64,000 nucleotides of DNA from Bacteroidota bacterium (GTDB lineage: Bacteria; Bacteroidota; Bacteroidia; CAILMK01; JAAYUY01), in contig JABINZ010000192.1 in the NCBI GenBank assembly GCA_018698135.1, positions 3,237 to 67,236 on the forward strand, read 5' to 3'. A program made the translations under genes and the position numbers. Below, piece after piece: positions 796-56,536 of this stretch (its first letter is position 1; each line of letters begins with the position of its first letter). Below the pieces are notes generated by a model. It had not been told where the DNA came from, ran no database searches, and saw only the letters and a program-made list of their open reading frames with translations.

Positions 796-1293
796 TTACA
801 AACTTTCTAGAGCCAAATCGTAGTTCGGTTCATCGGTAGTTTCAGCTATTTGCTCTGAATAAATCACCCTACCTTCAGTATTAATAACAACGATACTTCT
901 TGAATTTAGACCTGCTAGTGGTCCATCTATAATGTTTAAACCGTAATCTTTACCAAATTGACCAGTATTAAAATCTGATAGCATAAATACATTTTCAATT
1001 CCTTCTGCTCCACAAAATCTTGTTTGAGCAAATGGCAAATCCCTTGAGATACACAAAACACTAGTATTATTAAGATTAGCAGCTGATTTATTAAAGTTGC
1101 GAACTGATGCTGCACACGTTCCAGTGTCAATACTTGGGAAAATATTTAACACTAAATTCTTTCCTTTAAAGTTGTTCAATGTTTTGGTAGATAAGTCTGG
1201 TGCTATCAGTTTGAAGTCCTTCGCTAAGCTTCCAACTTTTGGTAATTCTCCACTTGTATTTATAGTGTTACCTTTTAATGTAATTTTTGTCAT
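796..1293 (-). CDS. tpx: Thiol peroxidase (lipid hydroperoxide peroxidase, atypical 2-Cys peroxiredoxin)
   Basis: 165 aa; Tpx motifs around SIDTGTCA (peroxidatic Cys) and a resolving Cys in CISRDLPFAQTRFCGAEG; length typical of Tpx. Confidence 0.9.
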   Translation of the reverse strand: MTKITLKGNTINTSGELPKVGSLAKDFKLIAPDLSTKTLNNFKGKNLVLNIFPSIDTGTCAASVRNFNKSAANLNNTSVLCISRDLPFAQTRFCGAEGIENVFMLSDFNTGQFGKDYGLNIIDGPLAGLNSRSIVVINTEGRVIYSEQIAETTDEPNYDLALESL

Positions 1294-1330
1294 ATTATAT
1301 GTTTTATATTATTGTAAGAAGGTATTAATT

Positions 1331-2179
1331 CTATTGTTTTAATAAGGTTTCAGCTGCAAGTTTTCCCAATTCATTAGAAGCTAATGGACTTGCACCAGTG
1401 ATTAATTTTCTATCCAAACAAACGGTTTTGTCTGATTTGGTATTTATAATATTAGCTCCTAAGCTCTTTAGTTTCTCACTTAAACCCCAAGGCATTTGTC
1501 CTGGCAAATAACCAATCATAGGCGTCATCTTATCTACCGAATCAGGGAATACCGCCATTTTGTATCCTTCGTAAATAAATTTTTGATCATTGAGCGTGGT
1601 TGCTAAAAATGAACCGGGCTCATGGCAAAGGCTTATAGTAAATAAATCGTTTTGATGAGCCCAATTTAATACCTTTCCAACGTTTTCGTCTTCAGGAATA
1701 CCTATCATAGCTCCGTGTCCACCAGGCACGAATAGCGCTGCATAAGATGCGGTATCGTTGAAAAAAGAACCGATAAAGTCCGCTAATTTCATTGGGTTTT
1801 CAAAGCTGGTTTTGAAGTCATTATAAATTGCTTTTACATGTTCATCTTTTTCTGGAAAGGCCCACATTTCAAAAACTACAGGTTTTCCAGTGGGAGTAGC
1901 TATTTCAAAATCAAAACCAGCATTTTTAAGATGCAGCATAGGCAATAAGGCTTCTACCGGATGATTTCCTGTAGAAAACAATTTGCCATTCTTCATTTTC
2001 ATGTTTTTTTGTTCGGTGAAAATCACTAAGATCTTCGACTTATTGCCTTGGTATTTTGTGTATGAAATATTTTCAAAATCAGTTGTGTTAACCGTTCCTA
2101 ATTTTAAAGCAAGTTTTGAAGGACTATAAGATCCATCTGATTCTAATTTTGGTGCAATTCCTAATATTTTCTTTAGCAT
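1331..2179 (-). CDS. hchA: Hsp31-type glyoxalase III / chaperone, DJ-1/PfpI superfamily
   Basis: 282 aa; strong similarity to E. coli HchA blocks (NGKLFSTGNHP, FVPGGHGA, ISLCHEPG with the catalytic Cys, KLITGASPLASNELGKLAA). Confidence 0.85.
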   Translation of the reverse strand: MLKKILGIAPKLESDGSYSPSKLALKLGTVNTTDFENISYTKYQGNKSKILVIFTEQKNMKMKNGKLFSTGNHPVEALLPMLHLKNAGFDFEIATPTGKPVVFEMWAFPEKDEHVKAIYNDFKTSFENPMKLADFIGSFFNDTASYAALFVPGGHGAMIGIPEDENVGKVLNWAHQNDLFTISLCHEPGSFLATTLNDQKFIYEGYKMAVFPDSVDKMTPMIGYLPGQMPWGLSEKLKSLGANIINTKSDKTVCLDRKLITGASPLASNELGKLAAETLLKQ

Positions 2180-2197
2180 ATCATTTTTTTTAAGGCT

Positions 2198-3181
2198 TTA
2201 CTTAATCTTAATAACAATTTTACCTTTTGCTCTTCCTGAGGCAAGATGTGTGAATGCATCAATACTCTCAGAGAATGAATAAACTTTATCAATGATTGGT
2301 TTGATTTTTTCATCTTCAACCAATAATTTAATTTCATTCAAATGTGCTCCATTCGGCTGCATGAAAATATATTTGTACGCTGCGTTTTTAGCACTAATTA
2401 GTTTAGCTAATTCTTCTGGTAATTTGTAGTCAGCCATCCCAAACAGTTTAGCAATTTCTTCATCTAGGGGACCGGCAATGCTAATAACTTTTCCACCTTG
2501 CCTTATAACTTGCAATGCTTCCAAAGAATAGTTGTTGCCAAGTGTGTCAAAAACTATATCAGCGTCTTTTACGATGTTTTTATAGTCCTCCGTTTTGTAA
2601 TCAATTACGTGGTCTGCTCCAAGTTCTTTCACCCACTTTACATTGCTAGTACTTGTGGTTGTATATACATAGGCTCCTTTTGCCTTGGCATACTGAATAG
2701 CTATACTACCTACACCCCCTGAACCTGCATGAATAAGCACTTTATCGTTTTCCTTTATCCCTGCGAATTCCAAGGATTGCATGGCAGTAAGTCCTGCTAA
2801 TGGTAAACTTGCAGCTTCTTCGAAAGAAATATTTCCAGGTTTTTTTGAAACGGCAATACTAGTAACAGCAACATATTCTGCTATTGTTCCCATTTGTTCT
2901 TGAGGTACCCGGGAATAAACCAAGTCTCCAATTTCAAAATTCTTTACTTTATCACCTTTCTCGACTACTATTCCACTAACATCATAGGCAGTGGTACTCG
3001 GTAGAGGAATAGGAAGCATGCCTTGCAGATGTCCCAAGACAATAATTTTGTCTATGGGGTTAATGGCAGCAGCCTTAACTTCTATAAGTACATCTGTTTC
3101 TTGAATGCTCGGTTTGCTTACTTCGTTAAAGGCCAAGCTATCTCTTAATTCACCGTATTTTACTATTTGTAATGCTTTCAT
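2198..3181 (-). CDS. NADPH:quinone oxidoreductase / zinc-independent MDR-family oxidoreductase
   Basis: 327 aa; medium-chain dehydrogenase/reductase fold with GSGGVGS nucleotide-binding motif and a KGKIVIKI C-terminus typical of Qor-like enzymes. Confidence 0.8.
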   Translation of the reverse strand: MKALQIVKYGELRDSLAFNEVSKPSIQETDVLIEVKAAAINPIDKIIVLGHLQGMLPIPLPSTTAYDVSGIVVEKGDKVKNFEIGDLVYSRVPQEQMGTIAEYVAVTSIAVSKKPGNISFEEAASLPLAGLTAMQSLEFAGIKENDKVLIHAGSGGVGSIAIQYAKAKGAYVYTTTSTSNVKWVKELGADHVIDYKTEDYKNIVKDADIVFDTLGNNYSLEALQVIRQGGKVISIAGPLDEEIAKLFGMADYKLPEELAKLISAKNAAYKYIFMQPNGAHLNEIKLLVEDEKIKPIIDKVYSFSESIDAFTHLASGRAKGKIVIKIK

Positions 3182-3265
3182 ATCTGTATCAATTAACTGT
3201 TCATAATATTTTGATACAAAGATAGAGTGAGGGGTACAGTAAAAAATTGACCTATGGTAAGAAAG

Positions 3266-3841
3266 CTATTTTCTTGCTTTTTCAACCCGAATACGGCTCA
3301 AGCTTTCTTGCGTGATACCTAAATAAGATGCAATGTGATAATTCCGGGTATGCTGCTCTACATCGGGGTATTCCTCTAAAAACAAATCATACCTTTCAGC
3401 AGCAGATAATTGTAACTGATTTAAAATTCTTTTTTGCAGACTTACAAAAAGACGTTCTAAATTCCCCCTTTGAAAGGGTTCTAATTCAGGAAATAGCTTG
3501 AGCATTCCATTAATCTTTTCAGCATTAAACTCGATGATGTTTGATTCTGTAAGGCATTCAATGGTTAGCGTTGCAGATTCATTTCCGTGAATAGCGATAT
3601 AATCACTTATCCAGTCATTTTTAATAGCAAAATGCAGGGTGTGCTCTTTCCCGTTTTTATCAATGCAGTAGGATCTTAAACAACCGCCTGTAACAAAAAA
3701 TATTTTATTTACCCTTTGTCCTTGACGGATTAAGATTGATCCTTTTGGAACTATTTTTTCTTTTGAAATAGAAATAAGATACTCTTCTGCTTCTATGCTT
3801 AAAATTATGCTTTCCTTTATTTTTTTTATTAAATATTCCAT
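3266..3841 (-). CDS. Crp/Fnr-family transcriptional regulator (cNMP-binding domain plus C-terminal HTH)
   Basis: 191 aa; beta-roll cNMP-binding region followed by the HTH SYLGITQESLSRIR. Confidence 0.8.
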   Translation of the reverse strand: MEYLIKKIKESIILSIEAEEYLISISKEKIVPKGSILIRQGQRVNKIFFVTGGCLRSYCIDKNGKEHTLHFAIKNDWISDYIAIHGNESATLTIECLTESNIIEFNAEKINGMLKLFPELEPFQRGNLERLFVSLQKRILNQLQLSAAERYDLFLEEYPDVEQHTRNYHIASYLGITQESLSRIRVEKARK

Positions 3842-4517
3842 TTCTCAATAATAGGGTAATTACTCACAACGGGAGTTTAGGGACAAACCCTAGAAACAAT
3901 ATGCTAAGTTAGCTATTCTTGTATCAATAGCTACAGTCAATTGCCTTTATCGTTTCATTACTATTATCTAATAATTTCCATCATCAATTTGAACGTGTAA
4001 TATAGACTTAAAATGCTTTGAATTTGAAATAAAACAGAAGAATACTAATGAAAAAGAATTTTAACTTTAGGCTGTAACATAAAACGAGTAAATATAAATA
4101 TTTTGATTTTAAGTTCGAACCCAAATCAATTCAAACTATCGTAACCATTGCTTTTGGAAAAATATGTTCTTTCTTTAGCATGGTACAAATAATAGGACCA
4201 TATTTATTATTTGATAGAAAAAAGGCATACTTGAACCATTTAGACATTACATTATCTACAATGTATTTCCTAATTAGAATGAAGATTCGATATTGATCAG
4301 TAATGAACAAATTCTAAAATATTATTTTGCTCAATTTGGATAAGTTTTTTTATCTCTGAAAGACAACCAAAATAGTGCAAAATTGGTGGTAAAATCGGTG
4401 GACATGAGCATCAACCTTGCTTAAGATGCTAAACGTCTGCTCTTTCTGCTCAAGAAATGATGTTTCAATTTTTCATAATGAAGCTTGGAAATTTTATTGA
4501 TGAACCTTCGAAAACCA

Positions 4518-27481: not shown

Positions 27482-27518
27482 AAAGGCTGTTCCGAATAAT
27501 TCGGGATGGCCTTTTTTT
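27482..27518 (+). terminator. Rho-independent terminator of htrA (aaaggctgttccgaa-taa-ttcgggatggccttttttt)
   Basis: Imperfect ~12-bp stem plus a T7 run 25 nt after the htrA stop. Confidence 0.6.
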
Positions 27519-27519
27519 G

Positions 27520-27658
27520 ACTCATCCCCTAACCCCTTCTCTAAAAAATCAAAGAAGGGGAATTGATCCTACTTCAAAATATAAATTTATTCACAAATAT
27601 ATAGGAGTACAATGTGTTCCCTTCTTTACGCAGTAGAGAAGGGCTAGGGATGAGTTCC
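27520..27658. mobile_element. MITE-like palindromic element copy 1 (~139 bp, ~22-bp imperfect terminal inverted repeats actcatcccctaaccccttctct / agagaagggctagggatgagt), coordinates approximate
   Basis: Terminal inverted repeats plus an inner inverted repeat (agaagggga / ttcccttct); AT-rich centre; near-identical second copy at ~28043..28182. Confidence 0.65.
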
Positions 27659-27664
27659 TAACAC

Positions 27665-28030
27665 CTATACTTCAAAACTAATTTTCACCCTATCCAATAC
27701 TAAATTGATATCACCAAGTTCTTTATTTTTAAAGCGAATGATTCTATATCCCAAATTCTTTAAAACTGCTTCTCTATCTTGATCATATTCCATTTGGAAA
27801 TCGTGAATCTTACCATCTAATTCAATAATCAATTTATACTCTGCACAATAAAAATCAACAATATAAAACTCTGGTTGGGTTGAGTCTTTTATCACAATTG
27901 GATGCTGTCTGAGAAACTTCTTTCCTCCGAGTTTTCTATTTCTTAGAATGTTCCATAGTATTTTTTCAGCTGGAGTTTGATTTTTCCTCAAATCTCGAGC
28001 TGTGTTTTTTATAGCGTCCCATTTATTCAT
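27665..28030 (-). CDS. DUF559 (Vsr/MutH-like PD-(D/E)xK endonuclease domain) protein
   Basis: 121 aa; typical DUF559 blocks (QTPAEKILWNILRNRKLGGKKFLRQHPI; DFYCAEYKLIIELDGKIHDFQ...D.DR...L...GY...RF.N); sits exactly between the two MITE-like copies. Confidence 0.75.
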   Translation of the reverse strand: MNKWDAIKNTARDLRKNQTPAEKILWNILRNRKLGGKKFLRQHPIVIKDSTQPEFYIVDFYCAEYKLIIELDGKIHDFQMEYDQDREAVLKNLGYRIIRFKNKELGDINLVLDRVKISFEV

Positions 28031-28042
28031 GGCTTGAATTTA

Positions 28043-28182
28043 ACTCATCCCCTAACCCCTTCTCTGAAAAATCAAAGAAGGGGAATTAATCCTACTTCAA
28101 AACTATAATTTTATTCACAAATATATAGGAGTACAATCTGTTCCCTTCTTTACGCAGTAGAGAAGGGCTAGGGATGAGTTCC
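28043..28182. mobile_element. MITE-like palindromic element copy 2 (direct repeat of 27520..27658, a few substitutions), coordinates approximate
   Basis: Aligned by eye to copy 1 over ~140 bp with a handful of mismatches (ctaaaaaa vs ctgaaaaa; ttgatcc vs ttaatcc; aaatataaattt vs aactataatttt). Confidence 0.65.
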
Positions 28183-28188
28183 AAATAC

Positions 28189-28752
28189 CTACAAAAACCG
28201 CTTCTGCATTTTGCTCTTCTGGTGCATTTCCTCCGCACCACTGATCTTCTTAAGATGAGATTTGGGAATTGTCATCGCTAAGTTTTGTCCAATAACCTCT
28301 ACATGTATTATAAACTTATGATGCCCCTGTGCTTCAGCTAAATTCCCAATTAATCCCTCAAGTGGTCCTCGAATAATTTGAACTGCATCTCCAAGTTTGT
28401 ATTCCTGCGTATTCACTTCAATTTCAATATCAGATTCTAACATTTTTTTTACGGCTAAAATCTGTCGTTCAGGAATTGGTTCGGGAAATCTTCCAAGCCT
28501 GACAAAAGAGACAATTCCTTCTGTATTTAGAACATCATAGTAATCATCCATTCCAATTTTAATAAATATATAGGACTTGAATACAGCTTCTTCAACCCAT
28601 TTTTTGCGATCACTCCATTGTTTCAGAATTTTGTGAATCGCCAGATAATGCTCTACCCCTTTTTCAGTAAGCTTCTCACTAACTTTCTTTTCGCCTCTTG
28701 ATTTTGTATATGCTGCATACCACTTGGGTTCCTTATCAATAATAGTTGCCAT
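28189..28752 (-). CDS. UpxY-family (NusG-like) transcription antiterminator
   Basis: 187 aa; NGN-like N-terminus (WYAAYTKSRGEKKVSEKL...), KOW-like C-terminus (KLGDAVQIIRGPLEGLIGNLAE...); family typically leads Bacteroidota polysaccharide loci. Confidence 0.7.
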   Translation of the reverse strand: MATIIDKEPKWYAAYTKSRGEKKVSEKLTEKGVEHYLAIHKILKQWSDRKKWVEEAVFKSYIFIKIGMDDYYDVLNTEGIVSFVRLGRFPEPIPERQILAVKKMLESDIEIEVNTQEYKLGDAVQIIRGPLEGLIGNLAEAQGHHKFIIHVEVIGQNLAMTIPKSHLKKISGAEEMHQKSKMQKRFL

Positions 28753-43281: not shown

Positions 43282-43677
43282 ATGGGTAAAGGTGATCCTA
43301 AAACAAAAAGAGGTAAAATTTTCAAAGGTAGTTTTGGCAAACATCGTTTAGCAAGAAAGCCAAAAGAAGAGGTAATCGTTGTCAAAAAGAAAGAGAAAGT
43401 TGTCGAGGAAGTTATTGAAAAAGAGGTTATTGAGGTAGTTAAGGAAAAGAAAGCTCCTGTAAAAAAAGCAGCACCTAAAAAGGAAACCACTGAAAAAGTT
43501 GAGCCCAAAGCAGAAAAAGCAGCAGAAGTAGAAAAAGCCCCTGCTAAGAAAGCTCCTGCAAAAAAAGCTGAGCCAAAAGCTGAAAAAGAGGAGAAAGCTT
43601 CTGTAAAGAAAGCAGCAGCAAAAAAAGCTCCTGCTAAAAAAGCTGCAGCGAAGAAAGAAGATAAAAAAGAAGAATAA
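43282..43677 (+). CDS. 30S ribosomal protein THX with a long K/A/P/E-rich histone-H1-like C-terminal extension
   Basis: N-terminus MGKGDPKTKRGKIFKGSFGK matches THX; the remaining ~100 aa are AKKA/PAKK low-complexity repeats. Confidence 0.7.
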   Translation: MGKGDPKTKRGKIFKGSFGKHRLARKPKEEVIVVKKKEKVVEEVIEKEVIEVVKEKKAPVKKAAPKKETTEKVEPKAEKAAEVEKAPAKKAPAKKAEPKAEKEEKASVKKAAAKKAPAKKAAAKKEDKKEE

Positions 43678-49616: not shown

Positions 49617-50369
49617 ATGGCAGTTAAAATTAGATTGCAACGCAAGGGGAGAAAAAAAGCACCATATTATTATATAGTGGTTGCGGATGCCCGCTCTCCC
49701 AGAGATGGTAAATTCATCGAGAGGATAGGTTCTTATAACCCGATTCCTACTATACCACAAATTGATATTGACACAGACAAAGCAGTAAGCTGGCTAGATT
49801 TAGGAGCAGTTCCTACCAAAACAGTGAAAACACTTTTGTCAACTAAAGGTGTTCTGTTTAAGAAGCATTTATCAAGAGGTATAAAAATGGGTATTCTTAC
49901 TGAAGAAGAAGCTGAAGTAAAATTCAATGAGTTCATTGCTCAGAAAGCAGACCAGTATAGTAAGAAAATTGAAAAATTAGAAGACAAAACAACTAAGAGT
50001 AAGCAGGCAGCTTTAGATCACGAGGCTGAGGTAAATAAAAAACGTGCAGCAGCAATAGCAGCAAAAAGAAAAGCGGAGATTGACGCATTAACTCCGGCAG
50101 AAGAGGTTGAGGAAGAAGTAGAAGCAACTGAAGAAGTTGTTGAAGCTAGTCCTGAAACAGCTACAGAAGAAGTTGCAGCAGAAGTTAAGGAAGAAGTTGT
50201 TGTAGCAGAAGCTCCGAAAGAAGAAGCTCCTGTTGCTGAAGCTAAGGAAGAAGCTGTTGTTGCAGAAGCTCCAAAAGAAGAAGCTCTTGTTGCTGAAGTA
50301 AAAGAAGAGGCTGCTGCTGAAGAAGCCCCAAAAGAAGAAGAGAAAAAAGAAGAGGCCGATAAGAAATAA
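49617..50369 (+). CDS. rpsP: 30S ribosomal protein S16 with long acidic E/A/V-rich C-terminal extension
   Basis: N-terminus [40 protein letters not shown] matches S16; ~140-aa extension of EEA/KEEA repeats. Confidence 0.9.
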
Positions 50370-55496: not shown

Positions 55497-56536
55497 CAAA
55501 TACGGGCTTATTTTCAGAAATTAAAACTTTAATAGAAAGCAGTAGAAGAAATGTTGCCCTTGTTGTAAATACTGAAATAAGTATGCTATACTGGAGTATT
55601 GGGCAAAAAATAAGTGTTTCTGTTTTACAAAATAAAAGAGGCGAATACGGTAAACAGATTGTCTCTACACTGTCGCGACAATTACACCTCGAATTTGGTA
55701 GTGGATGGAGTGAAAAGCAATTACGGCATTGTCTCCGTTTCTATGAAGTTTATCCTGATATTCAAATTGTCTCTACACTGTGGAGACAATTGAGCTGGTC
55801 ACATTTAAAAGAACTTATTCCAATACATGACTGTATAAAACGGGATTTTTACATTGAAATGTGTAAAATAGAAAAGTGGAGTGTACGTACTTTAAGAGAA
55901 CGTATTAACTCCATGCTATTTGAACGCACGGCCATCAGCAAAAAACCAGATAAAACCATCATTAACGAAATTGAAGAATTAAAAAGCGACCAGAAACTCA
56001 GCCCCGATTTGGTTTTCAAAGACCCATATTTTCTAGATTTTTTGGGTTTGAAAAATACATTCTCTGAAAAAAATCTTGAGTCGGCCATATTAACCGAACT
56101 ACAGGAATTTATTATTGAATTAGGTTCTGACTTTGCCTTTTTAGCCCGTCAAAAGCACATTACTATTGATCATGACGATTATTATATTGATTTACTTTTT
56201 TACCATCGCCAGTTGAAATGCTTGGTCGCCATTGAATTAAAAATTGGTAAATTCAAGGCATCTTACAAAGGGCAAATGGAATTGTATTTACGATGGCTGG
56301 AAAAACATGAGCAAGTACAAGGCGAAAATTCGCCCATTGGATTAATCCTCTGTACAGGGAAAAACGAAGAACATGTAGAGTTATTGCAATTAGACAAAAG
56401 CAATATTCGTGTTGCTGAGTATCTGACCAAACTACCAGCTAAAAAAGTATTGGAAGCCAAATTACATCAGTCAGTTGAAAGAGCAAAAAACAGGTTAACC
56501 CAAAATTCAGATCAGGAATATGGCAAAGAAAATTAA
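55481..56536 (+). CDS. DUF1016/YhcG-family PD-(D/E)xK nuclease-fold protein (start at the internal Met 'MENNVANTGLF')
   Basis: YhcG N-terminal blocks (FSEIKTLIESSRRNVALVVNTEISMLYWSIGQKI), C-terminal PD-(D/E)xK-like region (DLLFYHRQLKCLVAIELKIGKF). Confidence 0.75.
   Translation: MENNVANTGLFSEIKTLIESSRRNVALVVNTEISMLYWSIGQKISVSVLQNKRGEYGKQIVSTLSRQLHLEFGSGWSEKQLRHCLRFYEVYPDIQIVSTLWRQLSWSHLKELIPIHDCIKRDFYIEMCKIEKWSVRTLRERINSMLFERTAISKKPDKTIINEIEELKSDQKLSPDLVFKDPYFLDFLGLKNTFSEKNLESAILTELQEFIIELGSDFAFLARQKHITIDHDDYYIDLLFYHRQLKCLVAIELKIGKFKASYKGQMELYLRWLEKHEQVQGENSPIGLILCTGKNEEHVELLQLDKSNIRVAEYLTKLPAKKVLEAKLHQSVERAKNRLTQNSDQEYGKEN

Follow-up and report, generated by a model that had tools for sequence, protein, structure and literature searches.

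Paired BoxC/PIT/TM repeats around a YcjD-type DUF559 endonuclease gene in Bacteroidota: a candidate nuclease-plus-repeat element

Between two convergent genes of a Bacteroidota genome, a small gene for a DUF559 endonuclease is framed by two nearly identical palindromic repeats, and the question that this locus raises is whether gene and repeats are parts of one genetic element. DUF559, the domain of YcjD, is a very common bacterial "domain of unknown function", and we know of no function for YcjD. The repeats resemble the BoxC/PIT/TM motifs (TM units hereafter). These have been in the literature since 1992, are present in hundreds of genomes and form very stable triplexes in vitro; to our knowledge, they have no known function, origin or mobilising enzyme. 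We found no paper in the open-access literature that links DUF559 or YcjD to BoxC, triplexes, palindromes, MITEs, homing or mobility. The original prediction for this locus described a self-contained inserted cassette, in which MITE-like hairpin elements stand on both sides of the endonuclease gene, and all of the coordinates and sequences it gave are present in the DNA. Here, the cassette is followed through the 64-kb stretch of DNA that was analysed (the window), its relatives and other bacteria.

Architecture and history of the cassette

The cassette lies, as predicted, between the htrA terminator on the left and the UpxY stop codon on the right (Table 1). Its two direct repeats (27520-27658 and 28043-28182; 139 and 140 nt) are identical at 135 of 140 positions, and the DUF559 ORF nearly fills the gap between them, leaving 6 nt on one side and 12 nt on the other; both points agree with the prediction. 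The 23-mer ACTCATCCCCTAACCCCTTCTCT occurs exactly twice in the 64 kb, with zero occurrences expected, and each repeat copy folds far better than its shuffles (-52 and -49 kcal/mol, z about -7). The similarity between the copies overruns the repeat ends just given, to ATGGC as the left limit and ...TTCCnAAnACCTA as the right limit, and the repeated unit is therefore about 523 nt from start to start. The right overrun takes in the stop codons of both DUF559 (27665-27667) and UpxY (28189-28191), which refines the predicted right border. The direct repeat itself ends exactly in ...ACCTA in both copies, and the tail motif also stands after UpxY and recurs in L121 and L123. UpxY ends 2-4 residues earlier in the window (KMQKRFL before the stop) than in relatives with an empty site (KLQKRLLSGDS and KLQKRFLSG before the stop). 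The 12-nt leader on the other side of the gene is retained beside gene-less copies, as L126, L131 and L132 are homologous to the window up to 28023.

Within each 140-nt element, two three-part units are arranged as an inverted pair, with an AT-rich spacer of about 58 nt between them. A purpose-written TM detector, run on the window and on shuffles, found exactly four units in the window and none in the shuffles, and the two pairs that they form are the only TM pairs within the 64 kb. Unit 1, read on the minus strand, is CCCCTTCTTT-loop-AGAGAAGGGG-TTA-GGGGATGAGT, that is, a pyrimidine arm, a purine arm and a mirror third segment, and it contains the 19-mer CATCCCCTAACCCCTTCTC; unit 2 reads CCCTTCTTT-loop-AGAGAAGGG-CTA-GGGATGAGT. 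The spacer of the right pair also carries TAtaTTTG, about 100 nt upstream of the DUF559 ATG, a candidate that resembles the Bacteroidetes -7 promoter box; a sigma-70 promoter scan, which does not cover Bacteroidota promoters, gave nothing useful.

Table 1. Features of the cassette and of its two borders (window positions)
Feature	Position	Strand	Basis or remark
htrA intrinsic terminator	27482..27518 (hairpin 27482-27514 + T-tail)	+	terminator scan: 15-pair stem + T-run; left border of insertion
TM/BoxC unit 1, left pair	27520..27560	-	TM detector
AT-rich spacer, left pair	27561..27618	.	22% GC; differs between lineages (alignment)
TM/BoxC unit 2, left pair	27619..27655	+	TM detector
Conserved repeat tail, TAGGTGTTAGGAA on minus strand	27656..27667	-	provides DUF559 stop codon
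DUF559 (YcjD-type) endonuclease gene, 121 aa	27665..28030	-	Pfam PF04480, E=1.5e-32
12-nt leader, right pair to DUF559 start codon, taaattcaagcc on minus strand	28031..28042	-	homology
TM/BoxC unit 3, right pair	28043..28083	-	TM detector
AT-rich spacer, right pair	28084..28142	.	22% GC
TM/BoxC unit 4, right pair	28143..28179	+	TM detector
Conserved repeat tail, right copy	28180..28191	-	its TAG = UpxY stop codon
UpxY/NusG-like antiterminator gene	28189..28752	-	Pfam NusG, E=1.8e-17; right border; synteny in L123, L165, L166

Two more distant relatives preserve the empty site. In L165 and L166, whose UpxY proteins are 72% and 70% identical to that of the window, the gene order is the same (GT2-epimerase-UpxY-><-HtrA-T9SS), and the UpxY-htrA spacer of 85 or 102 nt contains the shared terminator only, with no DUF559 gene and no repeat. 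On this comparison, the cassette is a real insertion, as had been proposed. The cassette occupies this site in the window, L121, L122, L128 and L123-L127. Since the last five carry the cassette at the matching place between flanking proteins of about 80% identity, the insertion is old and vertically inherited, not recent. A shared arrangement in relatives, combined with a lack of other genomic copies, had been named beforehand as a point against a mobile cassette. The empty site, the relatives with the shared arrangement and the copies elsewhere all speak for the prediction, with refinements.

These copies, for which the prediction had suggested a search, number at least eight (some of them partial) on five metagenome contigs, all of them outside this locus and lacking the gene; they belong to the lineage-specific form of the element. 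L123 has three pairs, spaced differently from those of the window. In the alignment across lineages, the TM halves are nearly unchanged and the spacer has diverged. The 140-nt element does look like a MITE, as predicted; it is small, non-coding and dispersed in many copies, with terminal inverted repeats, and gene-bearing units with matching ends do exist. However, no target-site duplication was seen at the window or at the solo copies, and no transposase was found, the sole associated gene being the PD-(D/E)XK nuclease, so that "MITE" describes the looks of the element and no mechanism is demonstrated by it.

Identity of the repeats and of the nuclease

A BoxC/PIT/TM unit has a stem of at least 6-7 nt with a short loop, followed 1-6 nt after the purine arm by a third segment that mirrors it, for which G.G, A.A or T.A triads were accepted. 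In all four window units, the stem has 8-9 pairs with at most one mismatch, and the third segment has 9-10 mirror matches. Each window pair joins a TTA-loop unit to a CTA-loop unit, and in the published BoxC/PIT/TMECO inverted pairs a TTA-loop unit (type A) is joined to a C-rich-loop unit (type B) (PMC4666352). Across 270 hairpins, the hairpin's own third segment obeys the mirror rule in 47%, against 12% when the segment is taken from another hairpin. The 19-mer CATCCCCTAACCCCTTCTC has exact matches at at least 120 genome loci from a wide range of phyla (Cyanobacteria, Bacteroidota, Armatimonadota, Cloacimonadota, Chloroflexia, Patescibacteria and Alphaproteobacteria). By motif structure and sequence, these results show that the window elements belong to the BoxC/PIT/TM intrastrand-triplex motif family.

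The original prediction held that each element can fold as a long hairpin. This fold is stable and is the minimum-energy form, but the element is better read as two local hairpins with mirror segments. Between the window and L123 (CCCCTCTTT/AGAGAGGGG/GGGGGTGAGT), the three segments of unit 2 change together, and these compensatory changes support two BoxC/PIT/TM units; the single long hairpin was rejected because arms 1 and 4 are non-complementary in most family members and the compensatory changes are local. Isolated E. coli TM units form a triplex, as observed by CD or NMR (PMC4666352), and the window units are predicted from their motif architecture to be triplex-forming.

The protein matches the Pfam DUF559 profile with 112 bits (gathering cutoff 20.6) over positions 3-104 of 109. 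It contains D59, E70, D72 and H76, which are invariant in 24 homologues and are assumed to be the active-site residues, the catalytic role being taken over from the family. It also matches PDB 3HRL, an endonuclease-like protein of N. gonorrhoeae (E=7e-13). The YcjD equivalog model NCBIfam NF007294 matches at E=1e-21, with 77 bits that fall below its cutoff of 218; by profile score, the window protein is a relative of YcjD and not an ortholog-level match. E. coli YcjD (b1289) and PDB 3HRL share its protein family and small size, but only about 40% identity. PADLOC returned only weak matches, with "homing endonuclease" (HEase) at E=7e-4. Between the window and L123, dN/dS for DUF559 is about 0.085, with synonymous sites (dS) saturated, a substitution pattern that shows the gene to be under purifying selection. 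A 98%-identical variant carries a nonsense codon in the gene.

DUF559 genes and TM motifs across bacteria

The association of the gene with TM units extends beyond this lineage. Seven chromosomal DUF559 loci were sampled independently, picked solely by the length of their contig. Six of them have strict TM units no more than 110 nt away from DUF559 and the seventh has degenerate units, an enrichment of 16-fold over the flanking +/-4 kb (P=3e-7). TM or TM-like G/C hairpins adjoin the DUF559 gene in all 12 plasmid and chromid loci, which come from Cyanobacteria, Alpha-, Beta- and Gammaproteobacteria and Deinococcota (five phyla in our count); a perfect-stem detector accepts 7 of the 12 (7.5-fold, P=2e-10). 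Neighbouring intergenic DNA served as the baseline for enrichment. Altogether, the three-part motif flanks DUF559 in at least six phyla, and among 151 TM units in 883 kb (120 loci) DUF559 is the only recurring gene that TM units enclose. TM units are absent from nine more distant DUF559 loci (30-47% identity), all of them on viral contigs, and this limits the association to the chromosomal YcjD-type subfamily and does not extend it to all of PF04480. Within that subfamily, the sampled sequences show that the genes are generally flanked by TM motifs.

Like the window gene, E. coli ycjD has BoxC units close by, and the sequence directly after it includes a remnant of its 3' end. In K-12, BoxC/TMECO no. 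9 lies about 170 nt downstream of ycjD and pairs invertedly with a hairpin that overlaps the ycjD stop codon, and within the 154-nt spacer of this pair, 39 nt repeat the ycjD 3' end at 90% identity. The chance that one of 18 TM sites falls at ycjD is about 0.003. E. coli has 23 TM units and one ycjD. Of 5,426 complete E. coli genomes, 3,375 have ycjD, and about 38% are without it at this locus. In the window, the halves of the left-pair spacer resemble the 5' and 3' ends of DUF559 in the right order (post hoc colinear-ends test, P about 4e-4 to 2e-3); an unconstrained local alignment of the spacer with DUF559 was not significant against shuffles of this AT-rich sequence. The post hoc result is suggestive of the spacer being a relic of the DUF559 gene.

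The layouts vary. In L012, L153, L169 and L143, a single pair has the gene in its spacer; in the window, L091, L160 and L167/L168, the gene stands between complete pairs; elsewhere it has TM on one side only. Both orientations occur. A TM-DUF559-TM unit also stands in frame inside a 1165-aa LeuRS (leuS) ORF and inside methyltransferase ORFs of 1162 aa and 1382 aa, and a DUF1156 methylase gene is interrupted by the unit. Intein-like ends are missing from the in-frame copies, which the ORFs cross without a break.

Possible explanations and comparison with known systems

The explanation that we prefer, and to which we give about an even chance, is that the cassette is an old, vertically inherited copy of a two-part system, consisting of BoxC/PIT/TM repeats and their own YcjD-type DUF559 endonuclease. 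In such a system, the DUF559 protein would recognise the TM pair, in the form of duplex sequence or of an extruded hairpin or triplex, and would nick or cut in or beside it. Repair of the break from another copy would then duplicate TM pairs there or close by, in a gene conversion that resembles homing and would act preferentially in cis, and where the repair template carries DUF559, the gene would be copied too. Gene-bearing units would be the autonomous or master form, and the 140-nt pairs MITE-looking derivatives from which an internal deletion has removed the gene. Any action of DUF559 on TM DNA is something we infer from linkage, and the same is true of the mode of copying. Transposition is beyond a PD-(D/E)XK nuclease on its own, and no target-site duplication was seen; the copying step is therefore hypothetical. 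Other points also weigh against the two-part system: its support is linkage throughout; the window cassette has long been at one locus, with no sign of recent movement; the arrangement is variable; and the viral DUF559 genes without TM, the E. coli genomes that lack ycjD at its locus, the non-significant unconstrained alignment of the spacer and the negative findings of Holder et al. and Hoyne & Maher, given below, count against it.

The same linkage would arise if DUF559 were a selfish homing-type gene and the TM pairs merely its landing sites, spread or maintained by some other, unlinked mechanism; the nuclease would cut the spacer of empty pairs and be copied in by repair. This reading we consider unlikely, although several observations speak for it: the gene sits exactly in the single-pair spacer in three of the loci named above (L012, L153 and L169), the cassette lies inside conserved genes such as leuS and DNA methyltransferases, as homing elements typically do, there are many more solo pairs than gene-bearing ones, Vsr-fold homing endonucleases exist, and the nonsense codon of the 98%-identical variant fits the decay phase of a homing cycle. 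However, the window gene has stayed under purifying selection at one locus over saturated synonymous divergence, unlike the usual gain and decay, the gene lies between complete pairs and not inside one in the second group of layouts, and the conservation of TM sequence across phyla is left unexplained. Rather unlikely, too, is a host housekeeping or repair nuclease that acts on triplex or hairpin structures or on Vsr-like T:G mismatches, beside which TM would lie for an indirect reason, such as autoregulatory sensing or locally raised repair. TM motifs block polymerases in vitro and mark unstable regions (PMC4666352), which makes a dedicated nuclease plausible, and purifying selection, vertical inheritance, a single copy per locus and the Vsr fold are in keeping with it. 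But whole units in frame in unrelated host genes look like mobility and not like regulation, and the gene is dispensable, being absent from the empty-site relatives and from the E. coli genomes already mentioned. A T:G mismatch as a Vsr-type substrate was rejected: the canonical CAT/GTG mismatch of the outer arms exists because each half mirrors its own hairpin, and in the window copies it is absent, the outer arms pairing without any T:G.

If the flanks of a potentially toxic nuclease had been selected as generic cis-acting hairpins (terminators, insulators or mRNA stabilisers), there would be no specific relation between protein and repeat. The position of the pairs between convergent genes and next to a terminator, their stable folding, the promoter-like sequence in the spacer and the fact that such repeats are common in spacers of this type would all fit, but what recurs at DUF559 across the phyla is the specific three-part motif and not any hairpin, and the enrichment was computed against neighbouring intergenic DNA. 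In addition, some TM-flanked copies of the gene are embedded in long ORFs, so that transcription and translation have to pass through the units, and Hoyne & Maher, as cited in PMC4666352, report no promoter or terminator activity of TM elements; we consider this explanation quite improbable. A purely local tandem duplication of about 523 bp with no wider meaning is extremely improbable: the copies are indeed 523-524 nt apart and their similarity includes short flanks beyond the pairs, but the element is found at other loci and in other phyla, L123 has its three differently spaced pairs, and only the pairs, not the gene, are duplicated.

The two-part system, if it holds at the window, invites a wider and more tentative proposal, to which we give somewhat less than an even chance: YcjD-type DUF559 nucleases may be the long-missing partner enzymes of BoxC/PIT/TM repeats throughout bacteria, the two together forming a new class of nuclease-plus-structured-repeat genetic element whose gene-bearing units can colonise even essential genes in frame. 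The physical link of DUF559 with TM, consistent from E. coli through to Cyanobacteria and Bacteroidota, provides a testable hypothesis for both, namely the action of YcjD on BoxC in E. coli K-12. The in-frame units indicate that a nuclease domain with repeat-encoded linkers can be added to essential proteins such as LeuRS, which bears on how proteins gain new domains, and also on genome annotation, since some DUF559 genes are now labelled "leucyl-tRNA synthetase".

Among known systems, the repeats are closest to BoxC/PIT/TM(ECO) itself (Bergler 1992; Hoyne & Maher 2000, 2002; Holder et al. 2015, PMC4666352). The order of parts is the same (pyrimidine arm, loop, purine arm, 1-6-nt loop, mirror G/T/A segment), as are the frequent inverted pairs of TTA-loop and C-rich-loop units and the intergenic, multi-copy occurrence across phyla, and one window arm is identical over 19 nt to cyanobacterial copies. 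The window stems are AT-drifted (CCCTTCT/AGAAGGG instead of CCCTCTCCC/GGGAGAGGG), and the AT-rich spacer is long. Holder et al. and Hoyne & Maher describe the motifs as unlinked to mobile elements or gene classes and without in-vivo effect (PMC4666352). In the published work, the motifs are intergenic only, with no associated gene and no mobile-element link, whereas the units here flank DUF559 and elsewhere stand in frame inside ORFs. Rickettsia palindromic elements (RPEs; Ogata 2000) are, like TM and TM-DUF559-TM, short dispersed palindromes that occur in frame in protein genes, but they have no associated nuclease gene. MITEs are short dispersed palindromes as well, and the 140-nt pairs likewise look like internally deleted gene-carrying units; MITEs are, however, lineage-specific, whereas TM units are conserved across phyla, with no DDE or other transposase.

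For the nuclease, the comparison is with the I-Bth0305I family, in which, according to Table 1 of PMC3424549, Vsr-fold nucleases act as homing endonucleases. These enzymes (Dassa 2009, PMC2677866; Taylor 2011) have a related fold and, like DUF559, are encoded by small genes inside conserved host genes. They sit in self-splicing introns or inteins, whereas DUF559 units show neither intron nor intein features; Rfam gave no family in the window region at E<=1 and no intron or other RNA family in 14 related loci at gathering score. Unlike the I-Bth0305I family, the in-frame DUF559 copies appear to be translated through, with Pro/Ser/Gly/Glu-rich linkers encoded by TM.

In its overall logic, the DUF559-TM system may work like REP/REPIN and RAYT (Nunvar 2010; Bertels & Rainey 2011, PMC3116915), without being a member of that group. 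There, as here, a single-copy, vertically inherited nuclease gene is flanked by its own dispersed structured repeats, many of which are solo and often in inverted pairs, and the link to RAYT was also first drawn from flanking alone. The parts are different: RAYTs are HUH/Y1 (IS200/IS605-like) single-strand transposases and DUF559 is a PD-(D/E)XK (Vsr-fold) nuclease, while REPs are simple hairpins with a conserved tetranucleotide and TM are triplex-type motifs. If the proposal is true, bacteria would possess a nuclease-repeat class analogous to RAYT/REPIN that is built on a Vsr-fold nuclease and triplex-capable DNA.

Structure of the cassette and identity of its repeats

The cassette had been described as two near-identical direct repeats of about 140 nt that frame a small DUF559 gene between the htrA terminator and the end of UpxY, and this layout is borne out in full: 135 of 140 repeat positions are identical, the borders lie where they had been placed, and the enclosed ORF encodes a 121-aa protein. 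A 23-nt end motif of the elements occurs exactly twice in the window (0 expected). The repeat similarity runs slightly further than originally stated and on one side ends exactly at ...ACCTA, which contains the TAG stop codons of both DUF559 and UpxY. The gene is an ordinary PF04480 member; D59, E70, D72, H76 and the other residues invariant in 24 homologues are all present. It matches PDB 3HRL with E=7e-13 and the NCBIfam YcjD model with E=1e-21, the latter below the model cutoff.

Features of the cassette and its borders in window coordinates
Feature	Position	Strand	Basis
htrA terminator, with T-run	27482-27514
Left repeat	27520-27658
TM unit 1	27520-27560	-	three-part detector
TM unit 2	27619-27655	+	three-part detector
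DUF559 ORF	27665-28030	-	Pfam DUF559, E=1.5e-32
Right repeat	28043-28182
TM unit 3	28043-28083	-	three-part detector
TM unit 4	28143-28179	+	three-part detector
End of UpxY/NusG-like gene	28189-28191

The 19-mer CATCCCCTAACCCCTTCTC from the element has exact matches at at least 120 loci in the species-representative genome collection; those listed come from Cyanobacteria, Bacteroidota, Armatimonadota, Cloacimonadota, Chloroflexia, Patescibacteria, Latescibacterota and Alphaproteobacteria. Common to these loci is an order of CCCTCAYCCCCTAA, CCCCTTCTCC-loop-GGAGAAGGGG, a short spacer, CCCCTCTCCC-loop-GGGAGAGGGG and CTGGGGGTGAGGG, and a full-text search with these strings pointed to Holder et al. 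2015 (PMC4666352). At the sequence level, each half of the 140-nt element is the BoxC/PIT/TM(ECO) motif described there (hereafter TM unit), in which a pyrimidine arm, a purine arm and a mirror third segment allow a purine-motif intrastrand triplex. The motif forms a stable triplex in vitro, is carried by more than 260 genomes, is very abundant in Enterobacteria and Cyanobacteria, and marks variable genome regions; no function, link to mobile elements or favoured gene neighbours are known for it (PMC4666352). In E. coli K-12 there are 23 copies, which form inverted pairs five times, always of a TTA-loop unit and a C-rich-loop unit (PMC4666352). Rfam holds no family matching the elements.

When the three-part rule was turned into a detector, exactly four TM units were picked out in the window of 64 kb, and shuffled sequence gave none; each 140-nt element is therefore an inverted pair of units with TTA and CTA loops, separated by some 58 nt of AT-rich spacer (22% GC). 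The original prediction had each element folding as one long hairpin. Stable folding is confirmed (-52 and -49 kcal/mol, z about -7 against shuffles), whereas the single hairpin is less well supported than the three-part reading. The latter is preferred because one unit that reads CCCTTCT/AGAAGGG/GGGATGAGT in the window reads CCCCTCT/AGAGGGG/GGGGGTGAGT at the related locus L123, its three segments having changed in concert, and because the downstream segment of 270 pyrimidine-purine hairpins mirrors their own purine arm in 47% and another hairpin's arm in 12%. The window repeat can thus be classed as an AT-drifted new member of the BoxC/PIT/TM family, every sequence-level character of which it displays. 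The family itself may extend beyond the strict stems of 7 nt or more that published searches have required, as suggested by plasmids of Picosynechococcus (L167) and Pseudanabaena (L168), in which pairs of a short-stem variant, CCCCC-loop-GGGGG-CTA-GGGGG, flank DUF559.

Several other features of the window were recorded. Within the right pair spacer (28084-28142), at a distance of about 100 nt upstream from the start of DUF559, is a TAtaTTTG that resembles a Bacteroidetes -7 promoter box; its counterpart in the left pair (27561-27618) would face antisense into htrA. A 131-aa ORF (43282-43677, plus strand), whose N-terminus (MGKGDPKTKRGKIFKGSFGKHR) we take to be like ribosomal protein bTHX, continues into a long, histone-H1-like tail that is rich in Lys and Ala and has a coding sequence of 15-nt repeats. 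Similarly, a 250-aa ORF (49617-50369, plus strand), presumably ribosomal protein bS16, ends in a long C-terminal extension, acidic and rich in Glu, Ala and Val, for which 27-30-nt repeats code. At 55658-55790, two palindromic 26-mers (ATTGTCTCTACACTGT..GAGACAAT) lie 107 nt apart within one ORF, presumably of the YhcG/DUF1016-type putative nucleases, and encode a repeated QIVSTL(S/W)RQL motif.

Insertion, age and spread in the lineage

The order UpxY, pair, DUF559, pair or pairs, htrA is common to seven loci fetched for comparison. Two of these (L128, and L122 from Bacteroidetes MAG GCA_018692855.1) are identical to the window, and the variant locus L121 has a DUF559 98% identical to it. The remaining four (L123-L125, L127) come from one relative, with DUF559 72%, UpxY 80% and HtrA 80% identical to the window and, in L123, three pairs at the locus. 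That the cassette is a discrete insertion was upheld by empty sites at L165 and L166, where UpxY is 72% and 70% identical to that of the window and the gene order is kept (glycosyltransferase, epimerase, UpxY, convergent HtrA, T9SS protein); here the UpxY-htrA spacer of 85 and 102 nt consists of the shared terminator and has neither DUF559 nor a TM unit. Empty and filled sites together date the entry of the cassette to an ancestor shared by the window and L123 lineages. In the window, UpxY now stops at the TAG of the repeat tail, 2-4 residues short of its length in the relatives with empty sites.

Synonymous sites have become saturated since the insertion (pS 0.71-0.83), and DUF559 has been retained (dN 0.19, dN/dS about 0.085). 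Between the window and L123 the TM halves are nearly unchanged, while the spacer has diverged. On these comparisons, the cassette is judged to be an old insertion. A search for copies elsewhere had also been proposed, and a lineage-specific pattern from the pair spacer located at least eight further copies or part-copies at unrelated loci on five metagenome contigs, 85-92% identical to the window copies and without the gene; for example, they lie after T9SS protein genes, or between a peptidase gene and a uvrA-like gene.

In L121 (150-360 and 547-549), the gene has an in-frame TAG, and a nested palindromic insertion of about 70 nt damages the outer arm of the upstream pair. A 32-nt version (TTGCTTTCGCTGAAGCTTCAGCAGAAGCAAAG) occupies the same position in solo copies at L129 (about 380-430) and L130 (about 60-100). 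It has the appearance of a second mobile palindrome, of smaller size, with the TM arm as its target.

DUF559 genes and TM units in other bacteria

The association can be approached from either side. Among the 120 19-mer matches listed, five loci encode DUF559 and four of them do so directly beside TM units; DUF559 is the only gene repeatedly enclosed by such units. When homologues were selected solely by the length of their contigs, without regard to TM units, strict units lay no more than 110 nt from DUF559 at six loci (L143, L153, L158, L160, L161, L162) and degenerate units with flanking direct repeats at L159, a 16-fold enrichment for the seven loci over their +/-4 kb flanks (P=3e-7). A collection of plasmids and chromids gave 33 records by tblastn for DUF559, of which 12 were read (Picosynechococcus, Pseudanabaena, Synechocystis, Azospirillum, Methylobacterium, Sinorhizobium, Shinella, Deinococcus, Photobacterium, Neisseria gonorrhoeae, Qipengyuania and Sphingomonas). 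In all 12, TM or TM-like G/C hairpins adjoin DUF559, and seven pass a perfect-stem detector (7.5-fold enrichment, P=2e-10); the variant differs among taxa and is the same on both sides of a given gene. An association with TM units is shown to be the rule among DUF559 genes of the YcjD type, across at least six phyla. More distant DUF559 genes examined on viral contigs were without TM units. In the Photobacterium sp. GJ3 chromid (L174, 3370-4954), 15 regularly spaced units start about 90 nt past the DUF559 gene.

In two recurrent arrangements, the gene lies in the spacer of one inverted pair (L012, L143, L153, L169) or between complete pairs (the window, L091, L160, L167, L168). Some cassettes sit within other genes. 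In L012 (Bacteroidota MAG JAYTXX010000027.1), a 1165-aa LeuRS ORF (981-4478, minus strand) continues uninterrupted across TM-DUF559-TM, which sits immediately ahead of the TTRPDT motif, and contains three further solo units in frame, with peptides PPSPLEKGLGDE, LTPALSKGEGD and SPSPLERARGEA, resembling the RPE insertions of Rickettsia. This explains the JGI label "leucyl-tRNA synthetase" on several free-standing DUF559 proteins. In cyanobacteria, type IIG/PglX-like methyltransferase ORFs of 1162 aa (L091, 2381-5869) and 1382 aa (L097, 3847-7995) read through the same arrangement, and in a Synechocystis B12 plasmid (L169, 2316-4840) the cassette splits a DUF1156 methylase gene into three ORFs. 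DNA methyltransferase genes appear to be a repeated target. The units in these ORFs translate to Pro/Ser/Gly/Glu-rich, linker-like peptides, and the predicted DUF559 active-site residues are intact.

In E. coli K-12 (NC_000913.3; L133, 1,351,040-1,351,830), ycjD (1,351,407-1,351,760) is the DUF559 gene, followed some 170 nt downstream by BoxC/TMECO no. 9 (1,351,204-1,351,239; Table 1 of PMC4666352). Given 18 TM sites in 4.6 Mb, a particular gene would have one within 200 nt by chance with a probability of about 0.003. TMECO no. 9 and a hairpin that overlaps the stop codon of ycjD make up an 80% inverted repeat, and in the 154-nt spacer of this pair a stretch of 39 nt repeats the 3' end of ycjD at 90%. 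In the window, the 5' end of the gene (TGAATAAA) is matched by the first half of each pair spacer and the 3' end (AGTTTTGAAGTA) by the second half, in the correct order (post hoc P about 4e-4 to 2e-3); unconstrained alignment of spacers and gene was not significant. Together with the ycjD relic, this match suggests that solo pairs, which lack a gene, may be internally deleted gene-bearing units.

At the fabI-sapF region, ycjD and BoxC no. 9 are absent from 2,051 of 5,426 complete E. coli genomes; in the one such strain examined, MCJCHV-1 (L164, NZ_CP030111.1), a TetR-type regulator and an RND efflux operon (eefRABC-like) lie next to fabI instead. The neighbour of ycjD, fabI, is also known as envM. 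BoxC was first described at this locus, in the envM paper (Bergler et al. 1992; reference 46 of PMC4666352).

Relation of nuclease and repeat, and known systems

The cassette is shown to be an inserted unit in which a conserved nuclease gene is combined with two inverted pairs of a triplex-type repeat that is itself both conserved and dispersed. The favoured explanation, at about even odds, is that nuclease and repeat are functional partners: DUF559 would nick or cut at TM pairs, and the break would be repaired from another copy, spreading pairs and sometimes the gene. It is doubtful that DUF559 is a homing gene using TM pairs merely as landing sites, and unlikely that it is a host repair nuclease for TM-type structures. 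Generic cis-acting hairpins are improbable and local duplication very improbable, since both fit poorly with the in-frame insertions and the distribution across phyla.

Our literature searches found no paper linking DUF559 or ycjD with BoxC/TM units. As far as found, the DUF559-TM association, the in-frame colonisation of genes by TM-DUF559-TM units and the gene relics inside pair spacers are new. If nuclease and repeat do act together, the 30-year-old BoxC puzzle would become experimentally approachable in E. coli K-12.

The cassette can be classed with the nuclease-associated structured repeats. The original MITE label holds as regards small, dispersed, gene-free copies, but the cassette is not a strict MITE because it has neither a transposase parent nor a target-site duplication; nor is it an intron- or intein-borne homing endonuclease. 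As a working analogy, RAYT/REPIN comes closest: there, a single-copy, selected, vertically inherited nuclease gene is likewise flanked by its own repeats, although the nuclease fold differs and the cassette is therefore not a member of that system.
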